The notes beneath the pieces are model-generated. The model saw only the letters and a list, made by a program, of their open reading frames with translations. It did not search any database and had not been told where the DNA came from. The translations under genes and the position numbers were made by a program. A stretch of 64,000 nucleotides of DNA from contig OY764159.1 of NCBI GenBank assembly GCA_963668175.1, positions 1,504,001 through 1,568,000 of the forward strand, read 5' to 3'. Positions 7,636-26,850 of this stretch are shown in pieces. The number at the start of each line of letters is the position of its first letter. Within the stretch, counting starts at the first letter, position 1. The stretch comes from Syntrophales bacterium (GTDB lineage: Bacteria > Desulfobacterota > Syntrophia > Syntrophales > PHBD01).

Positions 7636-8598
<963 letters not shown>

Positions 8599-8660
8599 TC
8601 GTTGCCGTTCGGTGCATGATATAAAGACAGAATGCAGAAACAGAGAATGAGGAAAATACC

Positions 8661-9989
8661 ATGAAGAAGACTTCCATGAGAAAAGAAAACGGGTCGGCGA
8701 CGATCGTTCAAAAAATTAAAACAAAAAAAGCGCAAATTGGCGTCATCGGCTTAGGGTATGTAGGACTGCCGCTCGTCATCGAGTTCTGCCGGGCGGGCTT
8801 CCGGGTCACGGGGTTCGACGTCGACGGTACGAAGGTGTCGATGCTTAAAGAAGGCAAGAGCTATATCAAGCATATCGATGCGTCCAAGCTCGCCCAGCCC
8901 TTCATGAGCCGCTTCCGGCCGACAAACGATTTTTCGGCGCTGCGGTCCATGGACTGCATCGTCGTCTGCGTTCCCACGCCGCTCAACAAGAACCGCGAGC
9001 CGGATATGCAGTATGTCTTCAGCACGACGGAAACCATCGCCAAGTATCTGCGGAAGGGGCAGCTCATCTCCCTCGAATCGACGACCTACCCGGGGACGAC
9101 GGACGAAGACATGCGGGCGATCCTCGAAGAATCGGGACTCAAAGCGGGCAGGGATTTTCACCTGGCCTTCTCGCCCGAGCGGGAAGACCCCAACAACACC
9201 GATTTCAGCGTGCGGACCATTCCCAAGGTCGTCGGCGGCTACACGGACCGCTGCCTGAAGGCGGCCGTCGCCCTCTACGACCAGATCGTCGAGAAGACGG
9301 TGCCCGTTTCGTCCACGCGCGTGGCCGAATCGACCAAGCTCCTGGAGAATATCTACCGTTCGGTGAACATCGCCCTGGTCAACGAGCTCAAGATGCTCTT
9401 CGACCGGATGGGCATCAACGTCTGGGAGGTCATCGACGCGGCCCGGACCAAGCCTTTCGGCTACCAGGCCTTCTATCCGGGGCCCGGCCTCGGCGGACAC
9501 TGCATCCCCATCGACCCGTTCTATCTCACCTGGAAGGCCCGGGAATATGAATTCAGCACGCGGTTCATCGAGCTTGCCGGGGAGATCAATACGTCCATGC
9601 CCGATTTCGTCGTCTCGAAGGTCATGAAGGCCTTAAACGAACGAGGACGGCATCTGAAGGGCGCGAAGATCCTCCTCCTGGGACTTGCCTATAAAGCCAA
9701 CGTGGACGACGACCGGGAATCGCCGTCTTATCACCTGATCGAGAAACTGGAGAAACTGGGAGCCAAGGTGTCCTACAATGATCCCTATATCCCGGTGATC
9801 CGGCCGTCCCGCGAGTACGCCCATTACGCCGGCCGGAAGTCCGTGCCGGTCAGCAAGCGTTTCGATCTTATCCTGATTTCAACGCCCCATGACGCCTACC
9901 GGACGATCGACTTCAAGGCCCTGGGCGTTCCCGTCGTCGACACGCGGAACGTCGTCAAAAAGGCGGGGAGCTTCCTGTATAAGGCCTGA
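8661..9989 (+). CDS. wbpA: UDP-N-acetyl-D-glucosamine 6-dehydrogenase (nucleotide sugar dehydrogenase)
   Basis: GLGYVGLPL, ESTTYPGTT, FSPEREDP, GPGLGGHCIPIDPFYLTWKAREY (WbpA-type signature). Confidence 0.85.
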   Translation: MKKTSMRKENGSATIVQKIKTKKAQIGVIGLGYVGLPLVIEFCRAGFRVTGFDVDGTKVSMLKEGKSYIKHIDASKLAQPFMSRFRPTNDFSALRSMDCIVVCVPTPLNKNREPDMQYVFSTTETIAKYLRKGQLISLESTTYPGTTDEDMRAILEESGLKAGRDFHLAFSPEREDPNNTDFSVRTIPKVVGGYTDRCLKAAVALYDQIVEKTVPVSSTRVAESTKLLENIYRSVNIALVNELKMLFDRMGINVWEVIDAARTKPFGYQAFYPGPGLGGHCIPIDPFYLTWKAREYEFSTRFIELAGEINTSMPDFVVSKVMKALNERGRHLKGAKILLLGLAYKANVDDDRESPSYHLIEKLEKLGAKVSYNDPYIPVIRPSREYAHYAGRKSVPVSKRFDLILISTPHDAYRTIDFKALGVPVVDTRNVVKKAGSFLYKA

Positions 9990-10055
9990 CGCCGAGACAG
10001 GGGACTGGAAGGATTACACAGAACAAACGGGGAAAGGAAAACAGCCAAGGTGTCA

Positions 10056-11084
10056 ATGGACGATTACCGCAGTATTGCAGACGGACTGATCAAAAAGCCG
10101 AGGAAATGGCTTGTCACGGGCGTGGCGGGCTTCATCGGCTCGAACCTCCTGGAGGCGCTCCTCAAGCTCGATCAGGAGGTCGTCGGCCTGGACAACTTTC
10201 TCACGGGCCACCGGCGGAACCTCGATGAAGTGCAATCCCTGGTGACGGATGCCCAGTGGCGACGTTTCGCTTTCAGGGAAGGCGATATCAGGGACCTGGA
10301 AACATGCCGGGAGGTCTGCCGTGGTGCGGACTCTGTCCTCCACCAGGCCGCCCTGGGTTCGGTCCCGCGGTCCGTGAAAAACCCCGTCGCCACGAACGAG
10401 AACAACCTTGTCGGCTTCCTGAACGTCATCCTTGCGGCCAAGGATGCCGGCGTGGGGCGCTTCGTCTTTGCGACGTCAAGTTCCGTCTACGGCGACCACC
10501 CGGACCTGCCCAAGGTGGAGGAGAAGGTCGGCCGTCCCCTTTCGCCCTACGCCGTGACGAAGAAGGTAAACGAGATCTATGCCGACGTCTTTGCGCGCTG
10601 CTACGGCTTCCGGACCATCGGACTGCGCTACTTCAACGTCTTCGGCCCCCGCCAGGACCCGAACGGCCCGTATGCCGCCGTCATTCCCAAGTGGTTTACC
10701 GATCTGGCCAAGGGCGAGAAGATTTTCATCAACGGCGACGGAGAAACGAGCCGCGATTTCTGCTTCGTGGAGAATGTCGTGCAGGCGAACCTGCTGGCGT
10801 CCTGCACGGAGAACGAAGAGGCCTTCAATCAGATCTACAACATCGCCTACGGCGAAAGGACGACGCTGAACGAGCTTTTTGCCCTGATCCGCGACGGCGT
10901 GGCGAAGAAGTATCCGGATGTCGCAAATGCCCGGCCCGTCTACAGGGAATTCCGCGAGGGGGACATCCGCCATTCCCTGGCCGACGTCGGCAAGGCGAAG
11001 CGGCTCCTCAAATACGATCCCCATTACTCCGTCCGCAGCGGCCTGGAGAAGGCCGGACTGTGGTACCTGGCCGACCGGGGATAA
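10056..11084 (+). CDS. wbpP: UDP-GlcNAc(A) C4-epimerase, WbpP/TviC type
   Basis: [62 protein letters not shown]; alternative GTG start at 10050. Confidence 0.88.
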
Positions 11085-11280
11085 TGCCCGCACAGGGCCT
11101 CTCTCGTCATTCATGTGGAGATGTGACAGCGGGGAGAGGGATTGTCTGCTTCACCTACGAGTCAACGCATCATAATATAAAAGAAAATCAACAATAACCA
11201 CTTGCAGGGTAGAATAGATTTTGAGCAAAAGGCTTGCATCTCTTGAAATCTCCTTCGGTACGATCTGGTCCAAATGATTC

Positions 11281-11540
11281 CTGTTTGATCACGTAAACCG
11301 ATATATCTATGCCGATATTATTGACTATCGGTGTCCGTGTGCGGCCAGTCCCTTTTGACTGCGTCGTAAGAGTGTGATCCAATCTCATAAATACACAGCC
11401 TGCCATCCATATTGGTAACGCCATCCCGGTTGTTGCGGAGTCCTTGCAGAAGAACATGAGTGAACATCCTATCCTTGCCCTTGTGCCCGTCTATTGCTGT
11501 CCATGATAGAACTAGCCGTGGTAAATATTTGAAGACCTAT
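11281..11540 (-). pseudogene. Frameshifted remnant of a caspase-like (peptidase C14) C-terminal domain
   Basis: Hand translation across frames: IGLQIFTTASS / AIDGHKGKDRMFTHVLLQGLRNNRDGVTNMDGRLCIYEIG / GRTRTPIVNNIGIDISVY, resembling the C-terminus of bacterial WD40-caspase proteins. Confidence 0.5.
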
Positions 11541-11650
11541 AAAACGTCGCCGTCTGCATATGAAAATTCTTTTCTATGTCCTTTCCGTCCATAACCGCAT
11601 ACTAAAAATTGATAGAGCCGGCATGGAGTATCTTAAGAATAAAAAAGTTC

Positions 11651-11695
11651 TTGACAAGAATCCAACCTTAAGATACATAACGACCGGTCGGTATA
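11651..11695 (+). promoter_or_regulatory. -35 TTGACA plus TetR-type operator copy 1 (ATAACGACCGGTCGGTATA, 11677-11695)
   Basis: TTGACA at 11651-11656; palindromic core CGACCGGTCG; operator ends 24 bp before the tetR ATG. Confidence 0.8.
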
Positions 11696-11719
11696 AATAT
11701 CGCTTTTGGATGCAGCCAC

Positions 11720-12310
11720 ATGTCAGGTATAGCAACAAGACAAAATATCATAAATAAATCATTGCAGCTCTTTTCGGTGAAGGGTTACTTCAATACGTCC
11801 ATAAATGATATACTTCAAGTGACAGACCTGACGAAGGGGGGTCTTTACGGTCATTTCGACAGCAAAGAGGACGTTTGGTATGCCGTATATGATGAAGCCG
11901 CATTAATCTGGAAAGGGATCGTTTTCAGGGATGTGAAGAATATATCGGACCCTCTGGAGAGATTGGAAAAAGTTATAAGCAACCACTTGAAGAATTATAT
12001 CGGCGGAAGAGTCTTCAAGGGCGGTTGCTTCTTTCTGAACAGCATGATCGAGCTAGCCGGGCAATCAAGCGTCATGTGTCATCATGTTTCAAAAGGGTAT
12101 AAGCAATTTTCACGACTTTTTCTTGCGTGGTTGAAGGAAGCGGACCAAAAAGACCTTTTGAGAAAGGATCTTCATCTTGAAGAGATCAGCAATTTTATTC
12201 TTGTGACACTTAATGGTGCAGCAGCTCTCTATACATCTGGAACCAATGCCGCTATTCTGGACCAGACGATGAACCAACTACATTCCTTTATTGAGCAACT
12301 GAGGAAATGA
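11720..12310 (+). CDS. TetR/AcrR family transcriptional regulator
   Basis: N-terminal HTH LFSVKGYFNTSINDIL...LTKGGLYGHFDSKE; C-terminal GGCFF. Confidence 0.95.
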   Translation: MSGIATRQNIINKSLQLFSVKGYFNTSINDILQVTDLTKGGLYGHFDSKEDVWYAVYDEAALIWKGIVFRDVKNISDPLERLEKVISNHLKNYIGGRVFKGGCFFLNSMIELAGQSSVMCHHVSKGYKQFSRLFLAWLKEADQKDLLRKDLHLEEISNFILVTLNGAAALYTSGTNAAILDQTMNQLHSFIEQLRK

Positions 12311-12331
12311 GGAATTTTTTTTCAACATAAA

Positions 12332-12350
12332 TATACCGACCGGTCGTTAT
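12332..12350. promoter_or_regulatory. TetR-type operator copy 2 (TATACCGACCGGTCGTTAT)
   Basis: Exact reverse complement of copy 1; abuts possible extended -10 TGcTAATGT at 12350-12358, upstream of DUF169 gene. Confidence 0.8.
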
Positions 12351-12400
12351 GCTAATGTGGGAGATATATTGTACTGCTGTGTAAAATTGAAAGGAGTAGG

Positions 12401-13237
12401 ATGATGTACGATTTTGAAAAACCGAAAGGCCTTCCGAGAAACATAGAGCGTGCCGAGAAGATTGATAAACATCTTAAAATCTCTACTCTGGCGTTGGGTT
12501 TGAAATTCTTTAAAAAAGGAGAGGAAATCGTTTCAGGTCTGGAAAACGAATCCACTTCTCCCGGGACTTTTTGTCAATTTCTATCACAGACTCGATTTGA
12601 TAGATGCACTATAAGGCAGAATTATCTGCTCAGGCGAAAAGATATTGTATGTCCTTATGCTCCGGGTGTCATCGGCTTTGAAGCCTGGGGTGAAGATGTC
12701 AATAGCGGGGATCATATGGCGGGAGTCCATTTCGAAACGGCTGAGGCAGCAAGAAGGGCGCAATCGGCGGTACCGAAGATTGAACCGTTTTCAATAGAAG
12801 CTTTTCTGATCGGACCTTTAATGGATCTCGAAATCGATCCCGATATTATAGCCATAGCGTTTCAACCGGGAATGAGCTGTAAGCTTCTGGACGGCGCAAT
12901 GTGGAATACCGGAGAACCATTCAATATCAAATATTTTAATATGTGCGGAACTTGTGGGGCCGTGGCGGATGCCTACAATAAGAAGAATTTGGTAATCGGT
13001 TTCCCCGATCACGGTACGAGAAGAATGGCTTTGTTCGGAGACGCGGAACTATTTGCAGCGATACATATAGAATTTTTTGACGAATGGATTCTCGGAATGG
13101 AGAAATCGTTCGCGACCGGCCACTCTTTTCCGGTCGGATATATGTTAAAACGACCTCCTGCGAGCGTGCCGCATTTTAAGATAAAGGAATGGCCGAATAA
13201 TATTGTTCCTTTCGGTGAAAAAATGGATAAAAAATAA
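12401..13237 (+). CDS. DUF169 family protein
   Basis: LGLKFF...TFCQFLSQTR...DIVCPYAPGVIG...IGPL...DPDII...CGTCG...GTRRMA...EL pattern of DUF169/COG2043. Confidence 0.75.
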   Translation: MMYDFEKPKGLPRNIERAEKIDKHLKISTLALGLKFFKKGEEIVSGLENESTSPGTFCQFLSQTRFDRCTIRQNYLLRRKDIVCPYAPGVIGFEAWGEDVNSGDHMAGVHFETAEAARRAQSAVPKIEPFSIEAFLIGPLMDLEIDPDIIAIAFQPGMSCKLLDGAMWNTGEPFNIKYFNMCGTCGAVADAYNKKNLVIGFPDHGTRRMALFGDAELFAAIHIEFFDEWILGMEKSFATGHSFPVGYMLKRPPASVPHFKIKEWPNNIVPFGEKMDKK

Positions 13238-13293
13238 TCTTAATACTGGTAAGTGTCTTTCTCTGAATATGGTATATAAAATCGGAGGTGAGA

Positions 13294-13599
13294 ATGTACT
13301 GTAAAATTTCGAAGGTTAAAGTATCTGGCGATAAGGTGGATACCATGATTAAATGGGTCAGGGACGTATGGGGGCCACTCATTTCTAAGCAAGAAGGATT
13401 AAGAAGATACTATTTTCTGGTGAGAGAAGATGGAGAGGTCATATTCTTTATGATTTGGTCGGATATAAGCAGTATTGACTCCTGGTCCGGTAATCCGGAA
13501 CATATGGAGATATTGCCCGCATTCAAAGATATGATCATCGGTCCCGTGGATATGAAGGTATATGAAATATGCGGCCATAGCGTGAATTGCGAGCTTTAA
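13294..13599 (+). CDS. ABM (antibiotic biosynthesis monooxygenase-like) dimeric alpha/beta barrel protein
   Basis: About 100 aa; QEG.RRYY...W.D...D.W...PEH; GGAGG RBS. Confidence 0.7.
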   Translation: MYCKISKVKVSGDKVDTMIKWVRDVWGPLISKQEGLRRYYFLVREDGEVIFFMIWSDISSIDSWSGNPEHMEILPAFKDMIIGPVDMKVYEICGHSVNCEL

Positions 13600-13616
13600 T
13601 TTTTTTTAAACAACTA

Positions 13617-13652
13617 TATACCGACCGGTCGTTATTTTATGCATTGTATAAT
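13617..13652 (+). promoter_or_regulatory. TetR-type operator copy 3 (TATACCGACCGGTCGTTAT, 13617-13635) and -10 TATAAT (13647-13652)
   Basis: Identical to copy 2; covers the expected -35 position of the promoter for the downstream genes. Confidence 0.8.
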
Positions 13653-13672
13653 ACTTGAATAGGAGAATAAGA

Positions 13673-14317
13673 ATGTCAGAGAAACCCGATTATAAATTCC
13701 TGAAAGGGAAAGTCGAGGAATTATCCAAAGGAATAAAAGACAGAACGTCCGTAGAAAACAGGTTGCTTCTTCTCATAAAAAATAATTTTTCCGAAAGAAA
13801 AAGCGATGACGAAATTTTAGCGGCTCGTGAGGAAATATTGAATAGGGTTCAGAAGAAAGCGGAAGAGTACGAACAAGTGACTCACAGCTGCGCAAAAAGC
13901 GGAGCATTAGCGGTAATGGAAGAATTCGGTTTTGGCGACATCAAAATGATTAAGGCTCTTTCGGCTATGCCGGGAGTAGCTCTCACGGGCGAAACGTGCG
14001 GCGCGGTCTTAGGAGGGCTCTTCACGCTCGGATCGTATTTCGGAAGTGACGACGCATTAAATTATAAAGGTAATATCGAATGCTTTAAGAAATCCCGTCA
14101 ATTCATAGATACATTCGAAAAAGAATTGGGTACGACAAAATGCCGTCTGCTTCATGAAACCGTCGTCTTCGGCCAATATTTCGATACATCGGATGGGAAA
14201 GAAGGGTATCCCAATTTTCTGAAGAACAATGGCTATGAGAGGTGTAGCCTGATTCCGGGAATAAGCGCAAGAATCATGACCAATATAATATTAGATCATA
14301 TAGAATCAAAAAAATAA
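13673..14317 (+). CDS. C_GCAxxG_C_C family putative redox-active protein
   Basis: HSCAKS...GETCGAVLGG...GTTKCRLL...ERC four-Cys pattern; AGGAG RBS. Confidence 0.85.
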   Translation: MSEKPDYKFLKGKVEELSKGIKDRTSVENRLLLLIKNNFSERKSDDEILAAREEILNRVQKKAEEYEQVTHSCAKSGALAVMEEFGFGDIKMIKALSAMPGVALTGETCGAVLGGLFTLGSYFGSDDALNYKGNIECFKKSRQFIDTFEKELGTTKCRLLHETVVFGQYFDTSDGKEGYPNFLKNNGYERCSLIPGISARIMTNIILDHIESKK

Positions 14318-14403
14318 TGAATAGACATGCCGCAGTTCGGGTATTCGTGTCAATATTTGCTGAATCGATAAAGTGACCGATATTTCATAAAGAGGAGATC
14401 CTG

Positions 14404-15615
14404 ATGAGATCATTGCCGGTTAGAATGCAAGATCATATGTACCACGATTTATTCTCAAGTGATGAGACACAGATTATAAGAAAGAAAGCCAGGGAATTCG
14501 CAGTTAACGAGATTGCCCCCCGTTCTTACGAAATAGCGCATCAAGAAGAGCAAAAAGAGAATTTCCCATTCGATATATTTCATAAATTGGCGAAGGAAGA
14601 ATTCTTTAAAATACCCTTTCCCGGAGAAGTCGGCGGTCTGGGATTGAAATATCCGGTCTGCGCTACCGTGGTCACCGTCGAAGAACTGGCTTATATCAGT
14701 AATAGTATTGCCGCGATATTTGATGTTCATTGCATCCTCGCGGGGCATGCTCTTATGTATGGGTCGGAATTCATCAAAAAGAAGTATTTGTCGCCGTTGC
14801 CGCTCGGGGCGAGAATAGGCTGCTTTGCGACAACGGAGCCGAATGCAAGTTCCGAACTATCGGTGAAGGCTTTGAAAACGACCGCGTATAAAAGCGGAAA
14901 TAAATATATCGTAAATGGTCAGAAACGATTCATAACAAATGCATGCGTCGCCGATTATACGACGGCATTGGTGAATATAGAGGGAAAATTAAGCATGCTC
15001 GTTATCGATCTCGACTCAAACGGCTGCAAAGTCGGAATTCCTGATAAGAAGATGGGTAATCGCAGTCAGCTTACATCGGATATATATTTTGAAAATGTTG
15101 AAGTTCCGATCGAAAATCTTATTGGCAATGAGGGACAAGGCTTGCCGATAGCATTAAATACGTTGACGTACGGCAGAGTGGGCATTGCCGCAAGCGGAGT
15201 CGGTATGGCTCAATCAGCATTCGATGAGAGTGTCGAATATATGAAAAAAAGGGAAGCGTTCGGCTCGAAAATAGCTCAATTCCAGTATTGGCAATTTAAA
15301 CTTGCCGAAAGAGCTGTCGAAATAGAAAACGCGAGAAATTTATACTTAAAGGCCGCTTTGAGAATGGACAGCGGCGAGAAGCATCCGGAACCCGAGGCGG
15401 CCGGTGCAAAATACTATGCCACGCAACTGGCGGGCGATATGGCGAGAGACGGAGTGCAAATATTCGGTGGATATGGATTTATGCGCGCCTTAGGACATGA
15501 CAATTCAAGTTATAAAGTCGAAGAAATCATGCGAGATTACAAAATCGCGGAAATATATGAAGGTACGAACGAAATACAAAAGATGATTATAGCAAGAACA
15601 ATATTTGGAAGGTGA
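14404..15615 (+). CDS. Acyl-CoA dehydrogenase family protein
   Basis: FATTEPNASS, NGQKRFITN, KKMG, R.AFG..I..FQ, QIFGGYG, RDYKIAEIYEGTNEIQ. Confidence 0.93.
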   Translation: MRSLPVRMQDHMYHDLFSSDETQIIRKKAREFAVNEIAPRSYEIAHQEEQKENFPFDIFHKLAKEEFFKIPFPGEVGGLGLKYPVCATVVTVEELAYISNSIAAIFDVHCILAGHALMYGSEFIKKKYLSPLPLGARIGCFATTEPNASSELSVKALKTTAYKSGNKYIVNGQKRFITNACVADYTTALVNIEGKLSMLVIDLDSNGCKVGIPDKKMGNRSQLTSDIYFENVEVPIENLIGNEGQGLPIALNTLTYGRVGIAASGVGMAQSAFDESVEYMKKREAFGSKIAQFQYWQFKLAERAVEIENARNLYLKAALRMDSGEKHPEPEAAGAKYYATQLAGDMARDGVQIFGGYGFMRALGHDNSSYKVEEIMRDYKIAEIYEGTNEIQKMIIARTIFGR

Positions 15616-15620
15616 CGTTT

Positions 15621-16733
15621 ATGTCTAAAAGAAGAGGAGCGGAAGAATTATTCAGAGAAGTCGTAAACAACGGCTTATGCACCGGTTGCGGTGCGTGCGT
15701 ACGAGGATGCCCATATATCGCGGTTCATGAAGGATCGCCTGTATTGCTGGATAAATGTATCGAGACCGACGGCGAGTGCTATAAAAACTGTCCAAGAACA
15801 TATACGGATCTGAATTATTTAAGTCGGGAAATCAATGGAACGCAATTTGGAGTAACGGAAATAGGGTATTACCAGGATATTAAAATGATGAGATCGATAG
15901 ATCCAAAGATAAGAAAAAAATCGCAAGACGGAGGTATCGTTACGGATATATTGTGCAAAGCACTCGAAAAGAAAAATATCGATGCTGTCGTATGCAGTAA
16001 AATGGACGAGGAAAAAAAACCTCGCGGATTTCTCGCAAGATCGAGAGACGAAATAATGTCCTGCTCCGGTTCCAGTTATGAATCCAGTTATTCTCTCGAG
16101 GCATTACATAAAATAAATCGAGATAAGGAAGAAAAAATCGCGTTGGTGGGCCTGGGCTGTCAGATTGAATCGGTGAGTAAAATGTTGACATCCAAAGATG
16201 GACCTAAGAATAATATAGAATTAACGATAGGTCTATTTTGCGGCTGGACGCTAAACCAAAAAGCATTTCATCCATATCTCGAAACAATATGCGATATATC
16301 GGAAATTAAGAGGTTCGATATACCTCACTCGCCTAATTACACTTTTGACGTATATACCAATAACGACATGAAAATATCGAAATCCCTGGGTGAAATTAAA
16401 CCTTACATAAATTCGGGATGCGATTATTGCTGGGACATGACGGCGGAGTATGCCGATATATCCATCGGGTCGGCTGGTTCGGCCTTTCCGGGGTGGAATA
16501 CGGTTGTGATCAGAACGAATCGAGGCCGTGACGCCATAGAGACGATGTTGGAGGCTAACGCACTTGAGACGCAGGAACTGCCGTTAAAGCGAATAGAACA
16601 TCTAAAGAATGCGGCAATAAATAGAAAGAAAAAAGCATTTCAGAAAATGATTGGCAATACAGAAAAGAGCGAAGAATTAATGTTCATATGCGGAATCGAT
16701 AAAAAACAATTGGACGAAATATTGAAGTCATAG
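15621..16733 (+). CDS. FrhB/FdhB-like (F420 hydrogenase/dehydrogenase beta subunit family) Fe-S flavoprotein
   Basis: CTGCGACVRGCP, SQDGGIVT, SGSSY, VGLGCQ, IGLFC, GCDYCWDMTAEYADISIG, GWNTVVIRT.RG. Confidence 0.9.
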   Translation: MSKRRGAEELFREVVNNGLCTGCGACVRGCPYIAVHEGSPVLLDKCIETDGECYKNCPRTYTDLNYLSREINGTQFGVTEIGYYQDIKMMRSIDPKIRKKSQDGGIVTDILCKALEKKNIDAVVCSKMDEEKKPRGFLARSRDEIMSCSGSSYESSYSLEALHKINRDKEEKIALVGLGCQIESVSKMLTSKDGPKNNIELTIGLFCGWTLNQKAFHPYLETICDISEIKRFDIPHSPNYTFDVYTNNDMKISKSLGEIKPYINSGCDYCWDMTAEYADISIGSAGSAFPGWNTVVIRTNRGRDAIETMLEANALETQELPLKRIEHLKNAAINRKKKAFQKMIGNTEKSEELMFICGIDKKQLDEILKS

Positions 16734-16756
16734 GCCAACGAGTTAAGGGGAATATA

Positions 16757-18697
16757 ATGAAGAATATTGCTTTAAATAAGCCGGGGGCCGAAGTGCTTCT
16801 GATGGGAAACGAAGCTGTCGCTCGAGGTGTCCTGGAAGCAGGTGTGAGTGTAGCGGCAGCGTATCCCGGCAGTCCCTCGACAGAGGTGCTTAACACAATA
16901 GCAAAAGTGTCTAAAGAAATGAAAATTCACGCTGAGTGGTCGACAAATGAAAAAGTGGCGACTGAAGTTGCCGCCGGAGCGTCATTCGCAGGGTTGAGAT
17001 CGTTTGTGGCGATGAAGCAAAACGGCGTCAATGTGGCTGCTGATTTCATAGTCAATCTGAATATGACGGGAATCGGAAAAGGAGGAATGGTTATATTTGT
17101 GTCCGACGATCCCGGTGGAAGTACGAGCAATAACGAAGAGGATTCGAGAACCGCCGCAAAATGGCTTGACAATCCGTTGATGGAACCCAGCAGCGCGCAC
17201 GAAGCAAAGGAAATGATCAAATGGGCATATGAAGTGTCGGAGGCCATCAATCTGCCTGTCTATGTCAGAGGCGTAACAAGGATATCGTATACAAAAAGCA
17301 ACGTGACGTTGGGAAAGCTGCCGGATGATCGACACAAGAAGGCATATTTCGAAGAAATATGGGATATGAATAATCCGATAAAAAGTAAATTCACTTCAGG
17401 TCCATTTCCCGTATTCCACAAGCCGCTTCACGAAAAGATCGAACTGGCGAGGGAATTATTCGAAAAATCCGGCTTCAACGAATATGTGGGAAAAGAATAT
17501 CCGGATTTATTGATTATAGCGTCCGGAGCATGCATTTCCTACTGTGCGGAAGCTATAGAACAATTAGAAGCTGAGGATAAGGTAGCCATACTGAAGCTGA
17601 AGACCACGTGGCCAATACCTGAAAAACTTATAAAAGAGCATCTCATGCGCACGAGTAAAGTGCTGTTTGCGGAAGAAATGGATCCGTTTATCGAAAGAAG
17701 TATTTTGGAAATGGCCGCCGCATCGATACTGAAATACAAGAAGATAGAATTCTACGGGTCACTGTCCGGGCACTTCACACCGTATAACGAAAAAAGCACA
17801 AATCAGGTAATCGATGTGTTGGTCAATTTGCTGAACGTGGATTATCAGGCACGTGAAGGAGGTTACGAAAATAAGGCAAAGCAACTGACGCAGATTGTTC
17901 CGAATCGGCCGATAACGATGTGCGCGGGGTGTCCTCATAGAGCGACGTTTTGGAGTATTAAAAATGCAATTAAGCTCGACGGTAGAAATGGATTTCTATG
18001 CGGGGATATCGGCTGCTACGCAATGGGATTTGCCAGCCCGGGATATTATCAATCGCGCACCATGCACGCCATGGGATCGGGCGCGGGTGTTGCGAGCGGA
18101 TTAGGCGTTTTGAAGCGGTTCGATTTCGATCAACCGGTGCTCGCGATATGCGGTGATTCGACCTTTTTTCACGCCGTCATTCCCGCACTGGTAAACGGCG
18201 TATACAACGGATCGAATTACACCCTCATCGTTGTAGACAACAGTGCTACCGCCATGACGGGATTTCAGCCGCACCCGGGAACAGGAAAGGTAGCATCAGG
18301 CGAATATTCCCCCGTGATAGATATAGCGTCGATCTGTAAGGCAATAGGCACAACAGTCGCGGTGTGCGATCCTTTCGATATAAAGGAAACAACGACGACA
18401 TTATTGGAAATGATGAAAAGAGACGGCACCAAAGTCGTGATCTCGAAGCACATGTGCCAATTATACAAAGCGGGACAGAAAATACCTAACGAATACAAAA
18501 TGCATGTAGATTCAAAAAAATGCCTATCGGATTCATGCGGATGCAAGAATGTTTGTACGAGAATATTCGGTTGTCCGGGTATAACGATCGACAGCGAAAG
18601 CAATAAAGCCGTAATCGACGAGGCAATATGTGTCGGCTGCGGATTCTGTGCAGATATCTGTCCAGCAGGCGCTATTACGAGAGAAGAGGTCATATGA
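16757..18697 (+). CDS. iorA: Indolepyruvate ferredoxin oxidoreductase alpha subunit
   Basis: LMGNEAVARG, YPGSPSTE, WSTNEKVA, MKQNGVN, MCAGCPHR, GDIGCY, GDSTFFH TPP motif, C-terminal ferredoxin. Confidence 0.93.
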   Translation: MKNIALNKPGAEVLLMGNEAVARGVLEAGVSVAAAYPGSPSTEVLNTIAKVSKEMKIHAEWSTNEKVATEVAAGASFAGLRSFVAMKQNGVNVAADFIVNLNMTGIGKGGMVIFVSDDPGGSTSNNEEDSRTAAKWLDNPLMEPSSAHEAKEMIKWAYEVSEAINLPVYVRGVTRISYTKSNVTLGKLPDDRHKKAYFEEIWDMNNPIKSKFTSGPFPVFHKPLHEKIELARELFEKSGFNEYVGKEYPDLLIIASGACISYCAEAIEQLEAEDKVAILKLKTTWPIPEKLIKEHLMRTSKVLFAEEMDPFIERSILEMAAASILKYKKIEFYGSLSGHFTPYNEKSTNQVIDVLVNLLNVDYQAREGGYENKAKQLTQIVPNRPITMCAGCPHRATFWSIKNAIKLDGRNGFLCGDIGCYAMGFASPGYYQSRTMHAMGSGAGVASGLGVLKRFDFDQPVLAICGDSTFFHAVIPALVNGVYNGSNYTLIVVDNSATAMTGFQPHPGTGKVASGEYSPVIDIASICKAIGTTVAVCDPFDIKETTTTLLEMMKRDGTKVVISKHMCQLYKAGQKIPNEYKMHVDSKKCLSDSCGCKNVCTRIFGCPGITIDSESNKAVIDEAICVGCGFCADICPAGAITREEVI

Positions 18698-19320
18698 GAA
18701 AAGATGGGAAGATAAAAGGCAGAGGCATCAATGTAATCATTGCCGGAGTTGGAGGACAAGGGAATGTCCTGTTGTCCGATCTAATCGGAAACGCGTTCGT
18801 TTCCAAAGGATACAAAGTAAGCGTTGTCGACACGTATGGCGTAACGCAGCGCGGCGGTTCGGTGGCAAGCCATTTGAAAGTGTCGCGCGACATGCCGTAT
18901 AGCTCGGTAACATTGCAGGGAAAGGCGGATGTAATCCTGGGGATGGAGCCGGTAGAAGCATTAAGGGCTCTCGGAGAATACGGAAACGACGAAGTAATAA
19001 CGATCGTCAATCCAAGACCGGTATATCCGACGGGCGGAACGGTTTATCCAAATCCGGGAAAAGTATTTGAAGCGATTGAGAGTCTCTCCAAAAAAACGAT
19101 TTATATCAAAGCGACGGAAACCGCATTGCATATGAAAAGACCCATTTTGACGAATATCATATTATTGGGGGCTTTGATCGGTACCGATATTCTTCCTATT
19201 GACAAAGAGTCAATGATTCGGGTTCTGGAGGATCGATTCGCGGCAAATATATTGGATATTAATAAGGAAGCTTTCAATATCGGAATGAAAATGGGTTCGG
19301 GTGGAATGATGTCAATTTAA
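18694..19320 (+). CDS. iorB: Indolepyruvate ferredoxin oxidoreductase beta subunit
   Basis: AGVGGQGNVL, G..QRGGSV.SH, EP.EALR, N.EAF..G; ATGA overlap with iorA stop. Confidence 0.92.
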   Translation: MRKDGKIKGRGINVIIAGVGGQGNVLLSDLIGNAFVSKGYKVSVVDTYGVTQRGGSVASHLKVSRDMPYSSVTLQGKADVILGMEPVEALRALGEYGNDEVITIVNPRPVYPTGGTVYPNPGKVFEAIESLSKKTIYIKATETALHMKRPILTNIILLGALIGTDILPIDKESMIRVLEDRFAANILDINKEAFNIGMKMGSGGMMSI

Positions 19321-19339
19321 ATGTAAAGGAGAATGGGGT

Positions 19340-20635
19340 ATGGAACATGTAACAAGTGCACAGATGATCGCAGATACTAAAAATCCAACTCACCAAAGAG
19401 CGGTACTCGTATTTATACTCCTGATTACTTTATTGGTAGCGAATCTCGATCGGGTGAACGTATCGATATTAGCGGCGGATAGCGGTTTTTTAACCGATAT
19501 GCTGATTAAAGGTAAACCCGTCGAAATTGGATTACTGATGACGCTGTTTCTGATTGCTTATGGTATTGCAAATGTGGTTCTTAGTCCCTTGGGAGATATC
19601 ATAGGTCCGAAGAAGGCGATGATGATATCGATTTTTTTATGGACCATATCTATTATGATGGGCGGCTTCGCCGCTATATTTTCTACGATGTTGATATCGA
19701 GGGCCGTTCTGGGCGTCGGCGAAGGCATGCATTTCCCGATGCAAAGTGCTTTTGTGAAGAGATGGTTTCCGCCAACTGAGCGGGGCAAAGCAAACGGCTG
19801 TTGGCTCATAGGTGTAGTAGCCGGACCGGCACTGGCTATGCCATTCTTCACCTGGATCATTTCTTCCTGGGGATGGCGCACGAGTTTCTTCGTGATGGCC
19901 TGTGTAGGGCTCATACCTTTTCTTCTGATATGGTTGTTCATCACGGACCATCCCCATCAGAACAGATTCATCAATGCTGCTGAACGTAAATATATTGAAG
20001 ATGCGTTGGAAGCGGAAGCCGAACAAGAGAAAAAAATGACGAAAGAATGTCTGAGAGAGAGGCTTTCGACATTCTGTTCCAACTATCGGTTTTGGCTGCT
20101 GACATTTAATTATTTCTGTATAGCGGCGATATGGTGGGGAATGATGGCGTGGCTGCCCTCATATTTAAAAGTATCGCGCGGCTTCAGTTGGGCAGCCATG
20201 GGAACATTATCCGCTTTGCCATATATTTTGGGCGGTATCAGTATTCTTACCGTAGGACATTTGGGAGACAAGATCGGGAGACGCGCACCGCTCATTATGA
20301 TCGCTCATTTACTAGCGGCGACAGGCATTTACTTGGGTGCGCAGGCAACAAATAATATCTACTCGGCTCTCTTTATATCGTTCGGGATTGCTTGCGTCGC
20401 CGGTGCTATGCCGCTTTCATGGTCCTTACTGCAAAATATCGTTCCCGGTAAAGCCATTGGAGCGGGATCAGGCATGATGAATGGAGTTGCCAATGGCGGG
20501 GCGGCATTCGTTCCTGTCATCATCGGTTATTTCATCGCCTTCTCCGGTGGATATACGGGCGGCCTGATGTTTTTAGTAGGCCTGGCGATGCTTGCCCTTA
20601 TATCTATGGCCTTTTTATCTTTGCAGAAGTATTAA
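19340..20635 (+). CDS. MFS transporter, anion:cation symporter-like
   Basis: LDRVNVS, SRAVLGVGEG..FP, WFPPTERGKA, WLPSYL, GDKIGRR; about 12 hydrophobic segments. Confidence 0.9.
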   Translation: MEHVTSAQMIADTKNPTHQRAVLVFILLITLLVANLDRVNVSILAADSGFLTDMLIKGKPVEIGLLMTLFLIAYGIANVVLSPLGDIIGPKKAMMISIFLWTISIMMGGFAAIFSTMLISRAVLGVGEGMHFPMQSAFVKRWFPPTERGKANGCWLIGVVAGPALAMPFFTWIISSWGWRTSFFVMACVGLIPFLLIWLFITDHPHQNRFINAAERKYIEDALEAEAEQEKKMTKECLRERLSTFCSNYRFWLLTFNYFCIAAIWWGMMAWLPSYLKVSRGFSWAAMGTLSALPYILGGISILTVGHLGDKIGRRAPLIMIAHLLAATGIYLGAQATNNIYSALFISFGIACVAGAMPLSWSLLQNIVPGKAIGAGSGMMNGVANGGAAFVPVIIGYFIAFSGGYTGGLMFLVGLAMLALISMAFLSLQKY

Positions 20636-20693
20636 CGCATCATGGATTCAGAGCTGTTAAACTGAGAAAATAATCGATTGCATGAGGATAATG

Positions 20694-22346
20694 ATGAACA
20701 AAAAAGTAGTTATAATAGGCGGCGTTGCCGGTGGAGCGAGTGCAGCAGCGAGACTACGGCGCCTGAGCGAAGAACATGAAATCATCATATTTGAAAGAGG
20801 ACCCGACGTATCATTAGCAAATTGCGGTTTGCCTTACTACATAGGCGGCATAATCGATGCGCGCAAGAAGCTGCTGGTTCAAACCCCTGCTTCCCTGTTC
20901 AAGCGCTTTAATATTGATGTCCGGACATTGAGCGAAGTAACCCATATCGACCGGCAGAAAAAAGAAGTCGAAGTTAAAAATCTAAAAACTTCTGAAATCT
21001 ACACGGAAAGCTACGATTATCTCATCCTCTCGCCTGGAGCGAAGCCGATCATACCTGATATCCAGGGCATCGACCTCCTGAACGTTTTCAGCGTACGCAA
21101 TCTTGTAGATACAGACAATATCAAGAAGTTTATCGAAACTTCCAGCCCGAAGAGAGCTCTTCTCATCGGCGGCGGTTTTATAAACCTCGAAATCGCTGAG
21201 AATATAAAGGAAAAGGGTATAGAAGTAACGATTGTCGAAATGACGGACCAGATCATGGCGCCGCTGGATATCGAGATGGCCTCTATTGTGCATGATCACT
21301 TGAGAAAAGGCGGGATTAAGCTGTTGCTGAAACAGAGCGTAACGGCTCTGGAAGGAGATACCGAGGTAAAGAGCGCGCGGCTATCGAGCGGTGATGAGCT
21401 GGAAACGGACATGGTGGTGATAGGTGTCGGCGTAACACCCGAGACGTCGCTCGCGAAAGACGCGGGACTGACCATCGGGAAGACCGGAGGTATCGAGGTC
21501 AATAAATACCTGAGGACTTCTGATGCAAGCATTTATGCGATAGGGGATGCAATTCAGGTCAAGCACCTTGTAACTGATCAGGATGTTTTACTCCCTCTGG
21601 CATCGCCTGCAAATAAGCAGGGCAGGATTGCCGCGGATAATATTGCCAAGAGACCGGCAACGTATAAAGGGACACAGGGTACGGCGATAGTCAGGACGAT
21701 GGGTCTAACGGCAGCGGTGACAGGGACAAATGAGAAAACCCTCAGGAAACTTGGTACGAATTATGGCGTATGCTATCTGCATCCGGACGATCATGCGAGA
21801 TATTATCCGGGATTTTCGGAAATGTCCATGAAACTCATCTTTGCTCGGGTAGACGGTAGAGTGTTGGGGGCGCAGATTGTGGGAAGGCAAGGCATCGACA
21901 AGAGAATCGATGTTATCGCCACGGCCATCAGGGCAGGTATGACCGTATATGACCTTCAGGAGCTGGAACTGGCATACGCGCCTCCGTTCTCTTCTGCCAA
22001 GGACCCGGTCAACATGGCGGGTTATGTTGCGGCCAATATAATAAAAGGAGACTATGAACCGTGCTACTGGAATGATTGGGCGAAGGTTCTATCTGAGGAC
22101 CCGATGCTTATCGATGTCAGGATGGAAAAGGAGGTTGAAAATATTGGGGCCATTCCCGGGGCCGTTATAATTCCCCTGAACGATCTTCGCGAGAAGCTTT
22201 CAGAAATACCCAAAGATAGGAATATCATAATTTTCTGCCAGGTTGGTTTGAGGGGTTACATCGCTGAACGGCTGTTAAAGCAACACGGATTTACGAACGC
22301 CAGGAACTTCTGCGGAGGGTATAAAACGTATAAGTCCATAGCCTGA
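20694..22346 (+). CDS. cdr: CoA-disulfide reductase with C-terminal rhodanese domain (CoADR-RHD/persulfide reductase type)
   Basis: GGVAGGASAAARLRR, SLANCGLPY redox Cys, LELAYAPPFSSAKDPVN, rhodanese IDVR...FCQVGLRGY; start may be 20682 or 20691. Confidence 0.9.
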   Translation: MNKKVVIIGGVAGGASAAARLRRLSEEHEIIIFERGPDVSLANCGLPYYIGGIIDARKKLLVQTPASLFKRFNIDVRTLSEVTHIDRQKKEVEVKNLKTSEIYTESYDYLILSPGAKPIIPDIQGIDLLNVFSVRNLVDTDNIKKFIETSSPKRALLIGGGFINLEIAENIKEKGIEVTIVEMTDQIMAPLDIEMASIVHDHLRKGGIKLLLKQSVTALEGDTEVKSARLSSGDELETDMVVIGVGVTPETSLAKDAGLTIGKTGGIEVNKYLRTSDASIYAIGDAIQVKHLVTDQDVLLPLASPANKQGRIAADNIAKRPATYKGTQGTAIVRTMGLTAAVTGTNEKTLRKLGTNYGVCYLHPDDHARYYPGFSEMSMKLIFARVDGRVLGAQIVGRQGIDKRIDVIATAIRAGMTVYDLQELELAYAPPFSSAKDPVNMAGYVAANIIKGDYEPCYWNDWAKVLSEDPMLIDVRMEKEVENIGAIPGAVIIPLNDLREKLSEIPKDRNIIIFCQVGLRGYIAERLLKQHGFTNARNFCGGYKTYKSIA

Positions 22347-22592
22347 ATGATCAATAAACATCGTGTCAATCGGCTATTGAAAGAGCGTATTCCGATTATG
22401 GAGAAAGTGCAAAGGGATCAATAACAAAGCAAAGAATTGTTTTGACGGTGTTTAGATCAATCAAGTTCATGTAAAACCCGGAGATATCTGTTATGAGCTA
22501 TCGCGAAACTGCGTGAGACCCGATGATGCATGTGTCTATTCCGAGCAGAGGTAAATTAGAAATGGTGGCATCATTTCTTCTGCTCTTTTAAT

Positions 22593-22625
22593 AAGGGCCG
22601 GCGCTTATAGGCCGGTCCTTTTCTT
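22593..22625 (+). terminator. Rho-independent terminator closing the island operon
   Basis: AAGGGCCGGC-loop-GCCGGTCCTT followed by TTCTT. Confidence 0.6.
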
Positions 22626-22912
22626 CGACACGTGAATAAAGTAATATTATACTGTCGCTTTCGATGAACTCTCTGCAAACGGGTATTCCGTCTAAAAATG
22701 TTCTTTCTCTGATTCATCTGCAAGGTTTGGGCGGGATACCTGTCTATATGACATTTATTTCTGTATGTTATGTTGCGTCATCTGATGGTTTTGTGATCCG
22801 CAGATAACAGGAAGAAATTCACAAAAAAATCGCCAAATGACAATCCGGACCGGCTGCGTGGCGGGTCTGTCCGGCGGTATCGGATGTAACGGCCGCTATC
22901 CTGTGCGCCGTT

Positions 22913-24259
22913 TCAATGCGCCTTGAGGAGCGAGCCCACCAGTCTTTCCAGGTGGGTGAGGGTGTTGCATTCGCGGACCATGTGGCAGTACGGCATGAAT
23001 TTTTTGATCTCCGAATCCCCCGATCCCCAGTAGGACGGGATGTCCGGGTTCAGCCAGATGAGCTTCTTGCAGCGCCGGTAGATCGTTTTCAGGTTGTCGA
23101 TGTCCGTGTCGGCGTAGTTGTTGCGGGCGTCGCCGATGATGAGGACCGTCGTCTTGCGGGTGACGGCGTCGAGGTGGTTTTCCCTGAAATCGCGGAAGGA
23201 GCGGTCGTAGTCGGTCCGGCCCATGAGGACGGGAATCTCCGCCCCTGTCTGGAGTCGCTCCAGCGCCTCCTCGATCCGGTATTTGCTGAAGACGTCCGTC
23301 ACCTCCGCCAGATCGGAGCAGAAGACGAAGCTCCGGATGTCGATGACGGTCTTGTTGAGGCTGTAGAGAAAGAGCAGCAGGAACCGGACGGTGCGCTGGA
23401 CGGAGCGGCTGACGTCGCAAAGGGCGACGACCTGGGGCCGCTCGATCTTCTTTCGCTTCCAGTGGGTGTCGAAGAGCATGCCCTCGTAGGTGACGTTCTT
23501 GCGGAGGGTCTTCTTGAAATCGAGCATCCCCCGCCGGGCCGCCTTCCGCCTGCGGGAATGGATGTCGTTCAACTGCTTCACGAGTCTCTGGATGATGATA
23601 TGCATTCTCTGGAGGTGCTGCTGGTCGAGCTGGTTCAACCTGGCGTTGCGGAGCATCTCGTCGATGGACTGGTCACGGTCCGCCTTGGTCACGAGTTCCA
23701 ATTGCCTGACCACGATATTGCGCACGTTCTGCGTCAGCGTCTCCCGGGCCTTCTCCAACTGGGCGGCCGTGCCCATGCTCTGCGGCGTGCCCTGGTCCTG
23801 GAACATACGTATATCCGCATCGAGGGTCCGGCTGCCCATTCGCTCCATGATGCGCAGGACGTAGAGGTTCTTCTGGGTGAAGTGTTTCATCCCCGGCAGG
23901 TTCTCCTCCCGCGCAGCCAGCGCTAGGGCCGCGGCCAGGCCGCCGTGGTCCGCCATGAGCATCATCTGTGTCAGGGCCGATCGTTCCGCGTCCACGGCCT
24001 TCAATTCCCGGGGCTCGTTCCCGCTGCCCTCGGAGCAGGTGAAGATATCGGGCGAAAAGTAACGGTCGAAGCATTCCCGGAAGATGCGCTTTTCGATGAT
24101 GCTCTTGGCGAGCACCGCCGCGAGCGCATCCCGGAACAGCTCGCGCTCCGAGATGCCGACCTGACGGACCGCCTCGAAGGCCTCCAGCGTTTCGGCGATG
24201 GATATGCGGACGCCGGAGCGGCGCAGGGTGCGGATGAAATTCTCCAGGACCGTGTCCAT
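22913..24259 (-). CDS. VWA domain-containing CoxE-like protein
   Basis: Real start MDTVLENFIRTLRRSGVRIS at 24259 (TGATG overlap with upstream gene); LCDVSRSV MIDAS, TDY, IIGDARNNY, WLNP..W.SGDS. Confidence 0.88.
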   Translation of the reverse strand: MDTVLENFIRTLRRSGVRISIAETLEAFEAVRQVGISERELFRDALAAVLAKSIIEKRIFRECFDRYFSPDIFTCSEGSGNEPRELKAVDAERSALTQMMLMADHGGLAAALALAAREENLPGMKHFTQKNLYVLRIMERMGSRTLDADIRMFQDQGTPQSMGTAAQLEKARETLTQNVRNIVVRQLELVTKADRDQSIDEMLRNARLNQLDQQHLQRMHIIIQRLVKQLNDIHSRRRKAARRGMLDFKKTLRKNVTYEGMLFDTHWKRKKIERPQVVALCDVSRSVQRTVRFLLLFLYSLNKTVIDIRSFVFCSDLAEVTDVFSKYRIEEALERLQTGAEIPVLMGRTDYDRSFRDFRENHLDAVTRKTTVLIIGDARNNYADTDIDNLKTIYRRCKKLIWLNPDIPSYWGSGDSEIKKFMPYCHMVRECNTLTHLERLVGSLLKAH

Positions 24260-25212
24260 CAGGCTGCCCCCGCGCTCTTGACGGCGCCGGCCGTCAGGGT
24301 GTGAATCTGTTCCTTCATGGCGTCGATGTCGTCCTCGAATTTCAGAAAGACGTTCATTGTCTCCCGGACGATGTCCACATTGAGATTGCCGGCATTGAGG
24401 AGGACGACGGTCCGGGCCCAGTCGATCGTCTCGCTGATCGACGGGACCTTCTTGAGGTCCATCTTCCGGATCGTCTGGATGAAGGCCACGAGCTGCGCCG
24501 TAAGCTCCTGCGATATGCCCGGTACCTTGGCCAGGACGATTTCCCGCTCCAGGTCGGGGGCGGGGAAGGGGATGTGGAGGTGGAGGCAGCGGCGCTTCAG
24601 GGCCTCGCTGATTTCCCGGGTGTTGTTGCTCGTGAGGAAGACGAACGGCTTGGTGATGGCCTTGACCGTCCCCACTTCGGGGATCGACACCTGGAAATCG
24701 GACAGCATCTCCAGGAGGAAGGCCTCGAATTCGTCGTCGGCCTTGTCGATCTCGTCGAGGAGCAGGATGGCGCCTTCCTTCTGCTGCAGGGCCTTGAGGA
24801 GGGGGCGCTCTTCCAGGAACTGGCTCGAGAAGAAGATGTCGTCGTACTGGTGGAGCCTGTTCAGGGAATCGCCAAAACTGCTTTCCTTGCTGATGATGTC
24901 GTCGAGCTTGTCCTTGAGGAGTTGGGTGTAGAGGAGCTGCTTGCCGTATTTCCACTCGTAGAGGGCCTTCGATTCGTCGAGCCCCTCGTAGCACTGGAGG
25001 CGGATCAGGGGCAGGCCGAGATAGGCCGCGGCCGTCTTCGCCAGTTCGGTCTTGCCGACGCCGGCCGGCCCTTCCACCAGGATCGGTTTTTCCAGCTGGT
25101 AGGCGAGATAGACGGTCGTCGCGATCTGGTTGCTCGGGATGTAGCCCAGCTCTTTAAAGCCCTGGAGGATCTTCTCCCGGGAGGCGAATTTTTCCGCTTG
25201 AATCGGTTTCAT
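24259..25212 (-). CDS. MoxR family AAA+ ATPase, CoxD-like
   Basis: EGPAGVGKTE Walker A, RLQCYEGLDESKALYEW.Y.KQLL, LLDEIDKADDEFEAFLLE, TSNNTRE.SEALKRRC. Confidence 0.92.
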   Translation of the reverse strand: MKPIQAEKFASREKILQGFKELGYIPSNQIATTVYLAYQLEKPILVEGPAGVGKTELAKTAAAYLGLPLIRLQCYEGLDESKALYEWKYGKQLLYTQLLKDKLDDIISKESSFGDSLNRLHQYDDIFFSSQFLEERPLLKALQQKEGAILLLDEIDKADDEFEAFLLEMLSDFQVSIPEVGTVKAITKPFVFLTSNNTREISEALKRRCLHLHIPFPAPDLEREIVLAKVPGISQELTAQLVAFIQTIRKMDLKKVPSISETIDWARTVVLLNAGNLNVDIVRETMNVFLKFEDDIDAMKEQIHTLTAGAVKSAGAA

Positions 25213-25215
25213 GCA

Positions 25216-26355: not shown

Positions 26356-26367
26356 GCCCCGGGCCTC

Positions 26368-26793: not shown

Positions 26794-26824
26794 GGGTATC
26801 TCCATCTGTTTAGTATGCACATAT

Positions 26825-26850
26825 TTTGCATGCAAAGCATTCCTTGTCAA
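26825..26850 (-). promoter_or_regulatory. marR promoter -35 (TTGACA, 26850-26845) with palindrome TTTGCATGCAAA (26825-26836), probable MarR operator
   Basis: Perfect 12-bp palindrome just downstream of the -35 hexamer. Confidence 0.55.

Follow-up and report, generated by a model that had tools for sequence, protein, structure and literature searches.

The window analyzed here is a 64,000-nt stretch of DNA from a Syntrophales bacterium (GenBank assembly GCA_963668175.1, contig OY764159.1, positions 1,504,001 to 1,568,000; coordinates below are those of the window), and it contains a low-GC island of ten genes that begins with a gene encoding a TetR-family repressor. The ten open reading frames (ORFs) are intact, lie in the same orientation on the + strand (11720-22346) and belong to the families named in the first-pass annotation of this DNA. 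All scored above the curated Pfam cut-offs, the order being TetR_N/TetR_C_13, DUF169, ABM, C_GCAxxG_C_C, Acyl-CoA_dh, Fer4 plus FrhB_FdhB_N/C, POR_N plus TPP_C plus Fer4, POR, MFS_1 and Pyr_redox plus Rhodanese. Three consecutive genes of the island encode an FrhB-like protein and the subunits IorA and IorB of a 2-oxoacid oxidoreductase. Our main finding is that this triad is a conserved unit, widespread and tightly coupled, which the first-pass annotation, in describing a ten-gene pathway, had overlooked as a separate entity. The block and the genes of the triad are as follows.

11152-22814, no strand: low-GC block of 11,663 bp, likely transferred; assembled as one contig of precisely this extent in X1-X4 (four runs of one sample, probably the window's own source, which are not independent support)
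15612-16733, + strand: FrhB-like iron-sulfur flavoprotein with an N-terminal ferredoxin domain and an FrhB fold, the predicted third oxidoreductase subunit
16757-18697, + strand: IorA-type alpha subunit of a distinct clade of about 645 residues, with a modified ferredoxin loop (C589-x4-C594-G-C596)
18694-19320, + strand: IorB-type beta subunit, the start of which overlaps the IorA stop

The conservation of the triad was followed in two sets of genomes. Using an alignment of 56 FrhB-like proteins, we collected 160 FrhB-like loci from metagenomes and from genomes of Desulfobacterota, Chloroflexota and taxa labelled Myxococcota; each search had over 500 matches, of which the best 80 were used, and some of the loci are duplicates. 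IorA was present in 148 of these loci, directly downstream of the FrhB-like gene in 147 and upstream in one, and IorB was present in 119; the 12 loci lacking IorA all stop at most 340 nt from the FrhB-like match. The second set consisted of 300 genomes sampled evenly from the phylum, with at most four candidates scored per genome. There, IorA matches of the island clade (at least 520 bits) had an FrhB-like gene directly upstream in 89 of 113 cases, distributed over 68 genomes, whereas among the matches listed none of the 31 canonical IorA genes (up to 411 bits; 196 weaker matches lie outside the count) had one, nor did any of five intermediate, mostly partial matches. Viewed from the other gene, 89 of 103 strong FrhB-like matches preceded an IorA of the clade, as did none of 23 weak matches. 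The IorA clade occurred in 78 of the sampled genomes, the FrhB-like clade in 77 and both in 75. As a separate observation, a flavodiiron gene (ODP/flavodoxin) lies shortly downstream of the triad in five genomes from the order of the host, sometimes followed by a rubrerythrin gene; four of these loci were annotated directly.

The FrhB-like protein has the features expected of the FrhB fold. Across 174 sequences the QxGG motif for FAD (Q105-x-G107-G108) and 11 cysteines are conserved, as are the cluster cysteines C183, C210, C270 and C273. The structure model (pLDDT 89.6) gave TM-scores of 0.87 to 8RIU_B, the zeta subunit of an archaeal F420-reducing CO dehydrogenase, and 0.78 to 8RJA_E. IorA and IorB have the IOR architecture, an alpha subunit with POR_N, thiamine diphosphate-binding and ferredoxin domains plus a separate POR beta subunit, and their best NCBIfam matches are the IOR alpha and beta models, but both fall below the equivalog cut-offs (576 versus 651 bits for IorA with TIGR03336 and 136 versus 206 bits for IorB with TIGR03334). 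We found 27 IorA positions specific to the clade (a residue present in at least 90% of 104 clade sequences and in at most 10% of 16 canonical sequences), including two extra cysteines in the ferredoxin loop. A sequence search found no solved IOR structure.

Upon folding of the FrhB-like protein together with IorA, the predicted complex scored 0.74, the best of three controls being 0.00; the mark used for this score is reached by 116 of 157 solved complexes and by 2 of 215 mismatched pairs. Agreement between the runs was 100% for contacts, and the partner pLDDT was 85 or higher. The predicted interface places FrhB-like residues 31-55 against IorA residues 402-409, 594-603, 634 and 636. IorA C596 and R602 lie within this interface and D408, R410, C589 and G591 lie beside it; C596, R602, D408 and R410 are each conserved in at least 95% of the 104 clade IorA sequences and absent from the 16 canonical sequences. 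The prediction supports binding of the FrhB-like protein to IorA, although it does not show it.

Given this arrangement, the next consideration is the acceptor of the electrons that would reach the flavin. All of the closest structures of the FrhB-like protein are F420 enzymes, and HCAR (5DQR), which acts on an organic substrate at its flavin, shares the fold. The triad might thereby use a deazaflavin (F420 or Fo supplied by archaeal partners) or reduce an organic substrate in the manner of HCAR. Several results argue against this. The host genome, 100% complete at 4.57 Mb, yielded neither CofD nor CofE, and CofE was found in only 7 of the 50 carrier genomes examined (of 79 carriers; many of these genomes are incomplete), leaving 43 without it. 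Trp212 is invariant (174 of 174 FrhB-like sequences) where three aligned F420 enzymes have Glu, and the IGKGK turn gives way to a Pro-rich loop, so that the residues expected of an F420 channel (this turn and an isoalloxazine loop like that of FrhB 132-138) are missing; both features are the same in carriers with and without CofE. The zeta subunit itself has IGEG-K at the position of the turn, which is thus only partly diagnostic. Mills et al. placed the turn near the F420 phosphate (PMC3591093, PMC3930138), although the later of these saw no F420 density and the F420 contacts are not firmly established. The FrhB-like protein also scored far below the curated cut-offs of the frhB model (144.5 versus 331.5 bits) and the FpoF model (108.7 versus 475 bits). 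Because CofE is mostly missing and the F420-channel residues are replaced, F420 is unlikely to be the acceptor of the triad. To our knowledge F420 uptake is not established for any bacteria carrying the triad, and we consider a deazaflavin-dependent or HCAR-like reaction very improbable. If the three-subunit model holds, NAD(P)+ would be the most likely acceptor, which we put at about an even chance and propose because of the analogy with phenylglyoxylate:NAD+ oxidoreductase (PadEFGHI). That enzyme is a 2-oxoacid oxidoreductase that reduces a two-electron carrier via its own subunits.

The remaining genes and the regulatory features of the island are listed below.

11677-11695, - strand: operator 1, inverted, downstream of a TTGACA at 11651-11656; the predicted and likely autoregulatory site of tetR
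11720-12310, + strand: TetR-family repressor of the TetR_C_13 type (Pfam)
12332-12350, + strand: operator 2, inside a 38-nt block with 89% identity to its counterpart at operator 3
12401-13237, + strand: DUF169 protein (PF02596)
13288-13599, + strand: small protein of the ABM fold (PF03992, E 6e-7)
13617-13635, + strand: operator 3, which precedes a perfect TATAAT (13647-13652) by 11 nt
13655-14317, + strand: C_GCAxxG_C_C putative redox protein (PF09719), likely start ATG at 13673
14404-15615, + strand: acyl-CoA dehydrogenase (ACAD) of a conserved, uncharacterised clade, catalytic Glu386 present
19340-20635, + strand: permease of the ACS type in the major facilitator superfamily (MFS), best NCBIfam match TIGR00893, below cut-off
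20682-22346, + strand: CoA-disulfide reductase-rhodanese fusion (CoADR-RHD; here Cdr) (Pfam)
22593-22627, + strand: hairpin with a U-rich tail resembling an intrinsic terminator (fold energy)

The neighbors of the triad and of the permease give some indication of the substrate. Over the 160 loci the triad neighbors included LUD (18), LarA-type racemase (17), GlcD-type (11), UxaA/SuyB-type (11), D-2-hydroxyacid dehydrogenase (9) and Glu/Leu/Phe/Val dehydrogenase (7) genes; these counts are approximate, with one representative annotated per cluster and BLAST coverage up to about locus 147 of 161. Such neighbors hint at 2-hydroxyacid and amino-acid oxidation. In twenty further triad loci the neighbors were varied and had no common pathway. 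The nearest MFS orthologue with context (70-72% identity) precedes GlcD/GlcF-type 2-hydroxyacid dehydrogenase genes, and the island permease likely imports a 2-hydroxy or 2-oxo carboxylate; the two MFS loci retrieved lacked the triad. For ACAD to act on the IorAB product, that product would need alpha and beta C-H bonds, a condition that excludes the arylacetyl-CoAs. Hence, if ACAD does act on it, branched or aliphatic 2-oxoacids would be favored.

A methylthio substrate meets the same condition, and the first-pass annotation had raised the possibility of an organosulfur pathway. In such a pathway a 2-oxoacid such as 4-methylthio-2-oxobutyrate would give a thio-acyl-CoA as the ACAD substrate, with the CoADR-RHD protein taking the released sulfur as CoA persulfide; 3-methylthiopropionyl-CoA is a chemically valid ACAD substrate. 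Cdr matches the CoA-persulfide reductase 8A56 (E 5e-160), three relatives of the permease are named "putative sulfoacetate transporter SauU", and the UxaA/SuyB family of dehydratases, found near 11 of the 160 triads, includes sulfolactate sulfo-lyase. These three observations leave room for a methylthio substrate and none of them is specific; the SauU names are likely automatic transfers, and GlcD/GlcF-type genes accompany the best MFS orthologue with context. The ACAD itself scored 167 bits against a cut-off of 600 bits in the 3-sulfinopropionyl-CoA desulfinase model (NF042439), keeps the catalytic Glu of its YEG motif and is much shorter than DmdC, which has about 590 residues. Moreover, Cdr was found in none of the 160 triad loci, and the island encodes neither a hydratase nor a C-S lyase. 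The organosulfur proposal was therefore not upheld by these comparisons, and we consider it improbable.

The first-pass annotation had also expected the ten genes to recur together, and to give the families DUF169, ABM and C_GCAxxG_C_C a pathway context. For seven of the ten genes no conserved co-occurrence appeared in the fetched loci, and those three families gained no context from the island. An iterated profile search of the 160 loci found the accessory families near the triad in few cases: ACAD in 10, C_GCAxxG_C_C in 7, TetR in 6, MFS in 4, DUF169 in 2, and ABM and Cdr in none. Of the accessory genes, DUF169 alone has a close relative next to triad genes; relatives of 56-57% identity follow IorB in two near relatives of the triad (L019, 13803-14654, and L082, 4282-5133). 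No close relative of the DUF169 protein was found in 150 genomes of the phylum, and an Atlas look-up returned DUF169 clusters only. Within 1.5 kb of fifteen relatives of the C_GCAxxG_C_C protein in the phylum we found neither the triad nor any near relative of the other island genes. In the portion of the literature covered we found no function for either DUF169 or C_GCAxxG_C_C. Orthologues of the ACAD occurred in 5 of 400 genomes of the phylum (E 1e-150). An ACAD gene stands beside the triad in the near relatives L019, L084 and L101, in two of them with genes for electron-transfer flavoprotein (ETF), and the host encodes three ETF pairs outside the island. Cdr has the domains and cysteines of a CoADR-RHD protein, with E 6e-185 to PDB 3ICR and both active-site cysteines aligned, and its TIGR03385 score of 533 bits is a little below the cut-off of 579. 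We propose that DUF169, ABM and C_GCAxxG_C_C are lineage-specific accessories.

Regulation of the island appears to be common to all ten genes, although probably not through one transcript. The three identical 19-nt operators were confirmed and are the sole matches in the 4.57-Mb genome at up to two mismatches. A palindrome akin to the operator lies 30-106 nt upstream of 19 of 20 relatives of the TetR gene (up to 3 mismatches in 14), and one equal or better match was found in other 150-nt windows of the same 19 loci, which ties the operator to this type of repressor. Operator 3 together with its TATAAT lies within the cluster and thus a promoter there, serving the genes from C_GCAxxG_C_C to Cdr, is likely. 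The first-pass annotation had described one TetR-controlled unit; the single repressor stands, but three promoter units are likely in place of a single transcript. The hairpin of the proposed terminal terminator was also confirmed. It is a 10-bp hairpin at 22593-22620 with a U-rich tail (-19.6 kcal/mol, z -3.2), equalled by 2 of 200 shuffles, although a consensus terminator scanner did not list this hairpin. The TetR orthologues (47-61% identity) adjoin genes for thiolase, ACAD, enoyl-CoA hydratase, carboxyltransferase and methylmalonyl-CoA mutase (23 of 44 ORFs were scanned, at 11 loci). Because of these acyl-CoA enzyme neighbors the effector of the repressor is likely an acyl-CoA. The triad was absent from the 20 loci of TetR relatives.

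A rival possibility is that the island is a mosaic of cargo, in which the triad is a real enzyme and the other seven genes came from different donors to lie under one repressor with no shared pathway. The nearest relatives of each accessory gene are found in unrelated contexts. Those of the permease that are named are mostly from Negativicutes/Sporomusaceae (57-67% identity), plus a Syntrophales metagenome-assembled genome, and those of the triad and the ACAD are from Desulfobacterota and Chloroflexota. The GC content at third codon positions is 0.43-0.50 and rises to 0.55 at Cdr, and the three promoter units would also fit an origin by accretion. On the other hand, the identical operators, the overlapping or nearly overlapping ACAD/FrhB-like and IorA/IorB junctions, the one terminator and the ten intact reading frames suggest selection on the whole unit. 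The best ACAD match (P0122, 81%) and the best MFS match (P0242, 76%) are both Logan proteins, each with a longest contig of 9,430 nt, which hints at linkage elsewhere, perhaps in a second, partial version of the island. We regard a cargo mosaic as unlikely.

The foreign character of the island was borne out by its composition and by its flanks. GC content is 0.444 over 11150-22850, compared with 0.558 for the genome and about 0.57-0.64 for the flanks, and about 1% of 11.7-kb windows of the genome are equally low. In assembly graphs of X1, X3 and X4 a second, different pair of flanks joins the block at both ends, and depth in X1 is about 7 on the second flanks, 12-16 at the window junctions and 26 on the block. 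No sequence difference was listed between the block in its two contexts, although contigs drop rare variants. As an identical block stands in a second flanking context, its recent acquisition by horizontal transfer is likely. In X3 and X4 the left flank of the host also continues into other DNA after 11157, which indicates that the insertion site is variable in the population. An assembly artefact was considered and rejected, as contigs cross both island junctions at host-like depth; the graphs did not contain the joint of an empty site. The second flanks had no match in the host genome, the right one had none in viral contigs, and the FrhB-like protein had none in plasmids. Among 40 relatives none carried an orthologue of the island ACAD (E 1e-100). 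Run X5, from another study, contains short identical pieces of the block at low depth. The FastTree run on IorA gave a long-branch warning and no donor was drawn from that tree.

The block does not resemble an integrative mobile element. The ten ORFs and the end fragments include no integrase or transposase, the end fragments match no Pfam family, the block has no terminal or border repeats longer than 10 nt, and the window contains no tRNA gene that could have served as target. Searching Rfam gave no match. The sequence CACCTA (11152-11157) is common to the left flank of the host and the left end of the block in both alternative contexts, as in a crossover at microhomology, and has no copy at the right end of the block. 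In X1, X3 and X4 other contigs have short stretches of identity that stop at 11709, just past operator 1, or begin at 22198, at the end of Cdr, and then diverge, so related DNA may be present in the same sample. The block is flanked by a nucleotide-sugar/polysaccharide cluster (5158-11084) and by a convergent MarR-ACAD-AAA-vWA set (22913-26850), the MarR and vWA genes of which we take to be such from their sequences. Farther to the right are a 519-residue ORF on the - strand (26939-28498) without a Pfam match, the N-terminal half of which presumably has motifs resembling a PI3/4-kinase-like or HipA-like kinase of some bacterial effector-like proteins, and a second low-GC stretch (34001-37000, GC 0.46-0.48).

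Taken together, we judge it probable, with room for doubt, that the block is a recently transferred catabolic cassette and that its core is a predicted three-subunit 2-oxoacid oxidoreductase which passes electrons to flavin and then to an acceptor other than F420. This agrees with the parts of the first-pass annotation that fared well: a foreign, TetR-controlled island, import of an anion, oxidative decarboxylation to an acyl-CoA, an ACAD step and an electron-transfer role for the FrhB-like protein. In such a scheme the permease would import a 2-oxo or 2-hydroxy carboxylate, most likely aliphatic or branched and derived from an amino acid, and IorAB, as is usual in the family, would decarboxylate the 2-oxoacid on thiamine diphosphate to give an acyl-CoA. 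The N-terminal ferredoxin domain of the FrhB-like protein, replacing soluble ferredoxin, is predicted to dock on the C-terminal ferredoxin loop of IorA and to form an iron-sulfur wire to FAD, as zeta does on archaeal CO dehydrogenase. FAD would then pass two electrons to the non-F420 acceptor. ACAD would oxidize the acyl-CoA with host ETF, phenylacetyl-CoA and indoleacetyl-CoA being excluded, the CoADR-RHD protein would keep CoA as the thiol, and TetR would repress the three promoters until released by an acyl-CoA.

A number of points weigh against this scheme. The complex was folded with IorA residues 380-646 only (the C-terminal 267 residues), without IorB and without a canonical IorA control, and the docking of ferredoxin domain on ferredoxin domain may have been remembered from structures like 8RIU. 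The score thresholds of the phylum survey were set after gaps in the scores had been seen, and kin in the sample are not independent. The pairing has exceptions: of the 113 clade IorA genes, 24 are not adjacent to an FrhB-like gene, many of them at contig ends, and ten of the 113 lie more than 6 kb into a contig on the + strand or are otherwise non-adjacent. No more than 56 of the 160 loci are 15 kb or longer, and the neighbor counts, being drawn from related genomes, are not independent. The island's ACAD clade was beside the triad in none of six other loci within the stretches fetched, and the ACADs found next to other triads share only 24-36% identity with it and belong to a different clade. 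The island encodes no ETF and no 2-hydroxyacid dehydrogenase. Finally, no FrhB-fold protein is known to us to use NAD(P), which makes the acceptor the weakest step.

No description of the triad was found in the openly accessible literature searched, and the three text supplements of PMC11493965 do not mention IOR. We tentatively propose, as somewhat less than an even bet, that the triad is an undescribed class of 2-oxoacid oxidoreductase in which an F420-reductase fold has been re-tooled to NAD(P)+ or an organic co-substrate, present in about a quarter of Desulfobacterota and in many Dehalococcoidia. If so, it would contain the first FrhB-fold protein with such an acceptor, many genes called "F420 hydrogenase beta" and "ferredoxin-yielding IOR" in anaerobe genomes would be wrongly named, and the window would show the enzyme in transit, as an 11.7-kb cassette, between two replicons that coexist. 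In metabolic models of sulfate reducers, syntrophs and sediment Chloroflexota, any IorAB is taken to supply reduced ferredoxin, and the gene beside it is taken for a hydrogenase or F420 subunit. Were the triad, three soluble proteins, a single enzyme that reduces a carrier of higher potential, the energy bookkeeping of amino-acid and 2-hydroxyacid oxidation would shift in many such organisms. The ten-gene island matters less, being a recent combination in one organism that assigns no function to DUF169, ABM or C_GCAxxG_C_C.

Among known systems, the CoADR-RHD enzymes (3ICR, 3NTA and 8A56) match Cdr over its full length with both cysteines, and Cdr is an ordinary member of this group that has no link to the triad elsewhere (none of the 160 loci). 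PadEFGHI is unlike the triad in that its subunits are unrelated, the Pad models scoring far below cut-off, and its flavoprotein has a fold other than that of FrhB. The canonical IorAB enzymes share the two-subunit architecture of the island IorA and IorB, an example being IorA3B3 of Desulfococcus multivorans, the phenylpyruvate-induced IorA3 of which has the canonical length of 602 residues (PMC5109826) as against about 645 in the island clade (lengths, not sequences, were compared); the island clade differs in having a dedicated FrhB-like partner gene. The closest counterparts of the FrhB-like protein are the zeta subunit 8RIU_B and FwdI (8RJA_E) of Ca. Ethanoperedens thermophilum, which likewise have an N-terminal ferredoxin domain plus an FrhB fold in about 370 residues. 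Lemaire et al. (PMC11493965) reported that the N-terminal ferredoxin domain of zeta is the part that docks and that zeta bridges electrons to FAD. Zeta and, by prediction, the FrhB-like protein would thus both be wired by the N-terminal domain to a CO2-releasing enzyme. The two differ in that they are 31% identical, in that the FrhB-like protein has bacterial hosts, mostly without CofE, and a 2-oxoacid oxidoreductase as partner, and in that, compared with zeta and FwdI, it has Trp instead of Glu after the cluster cysteine and a Pro-rich loop in the F420 channel. If our reading is correct, the triad would parallel, in bacteria, the F420-wired enzymes with which ethane-oxidizing archaea release CO2.

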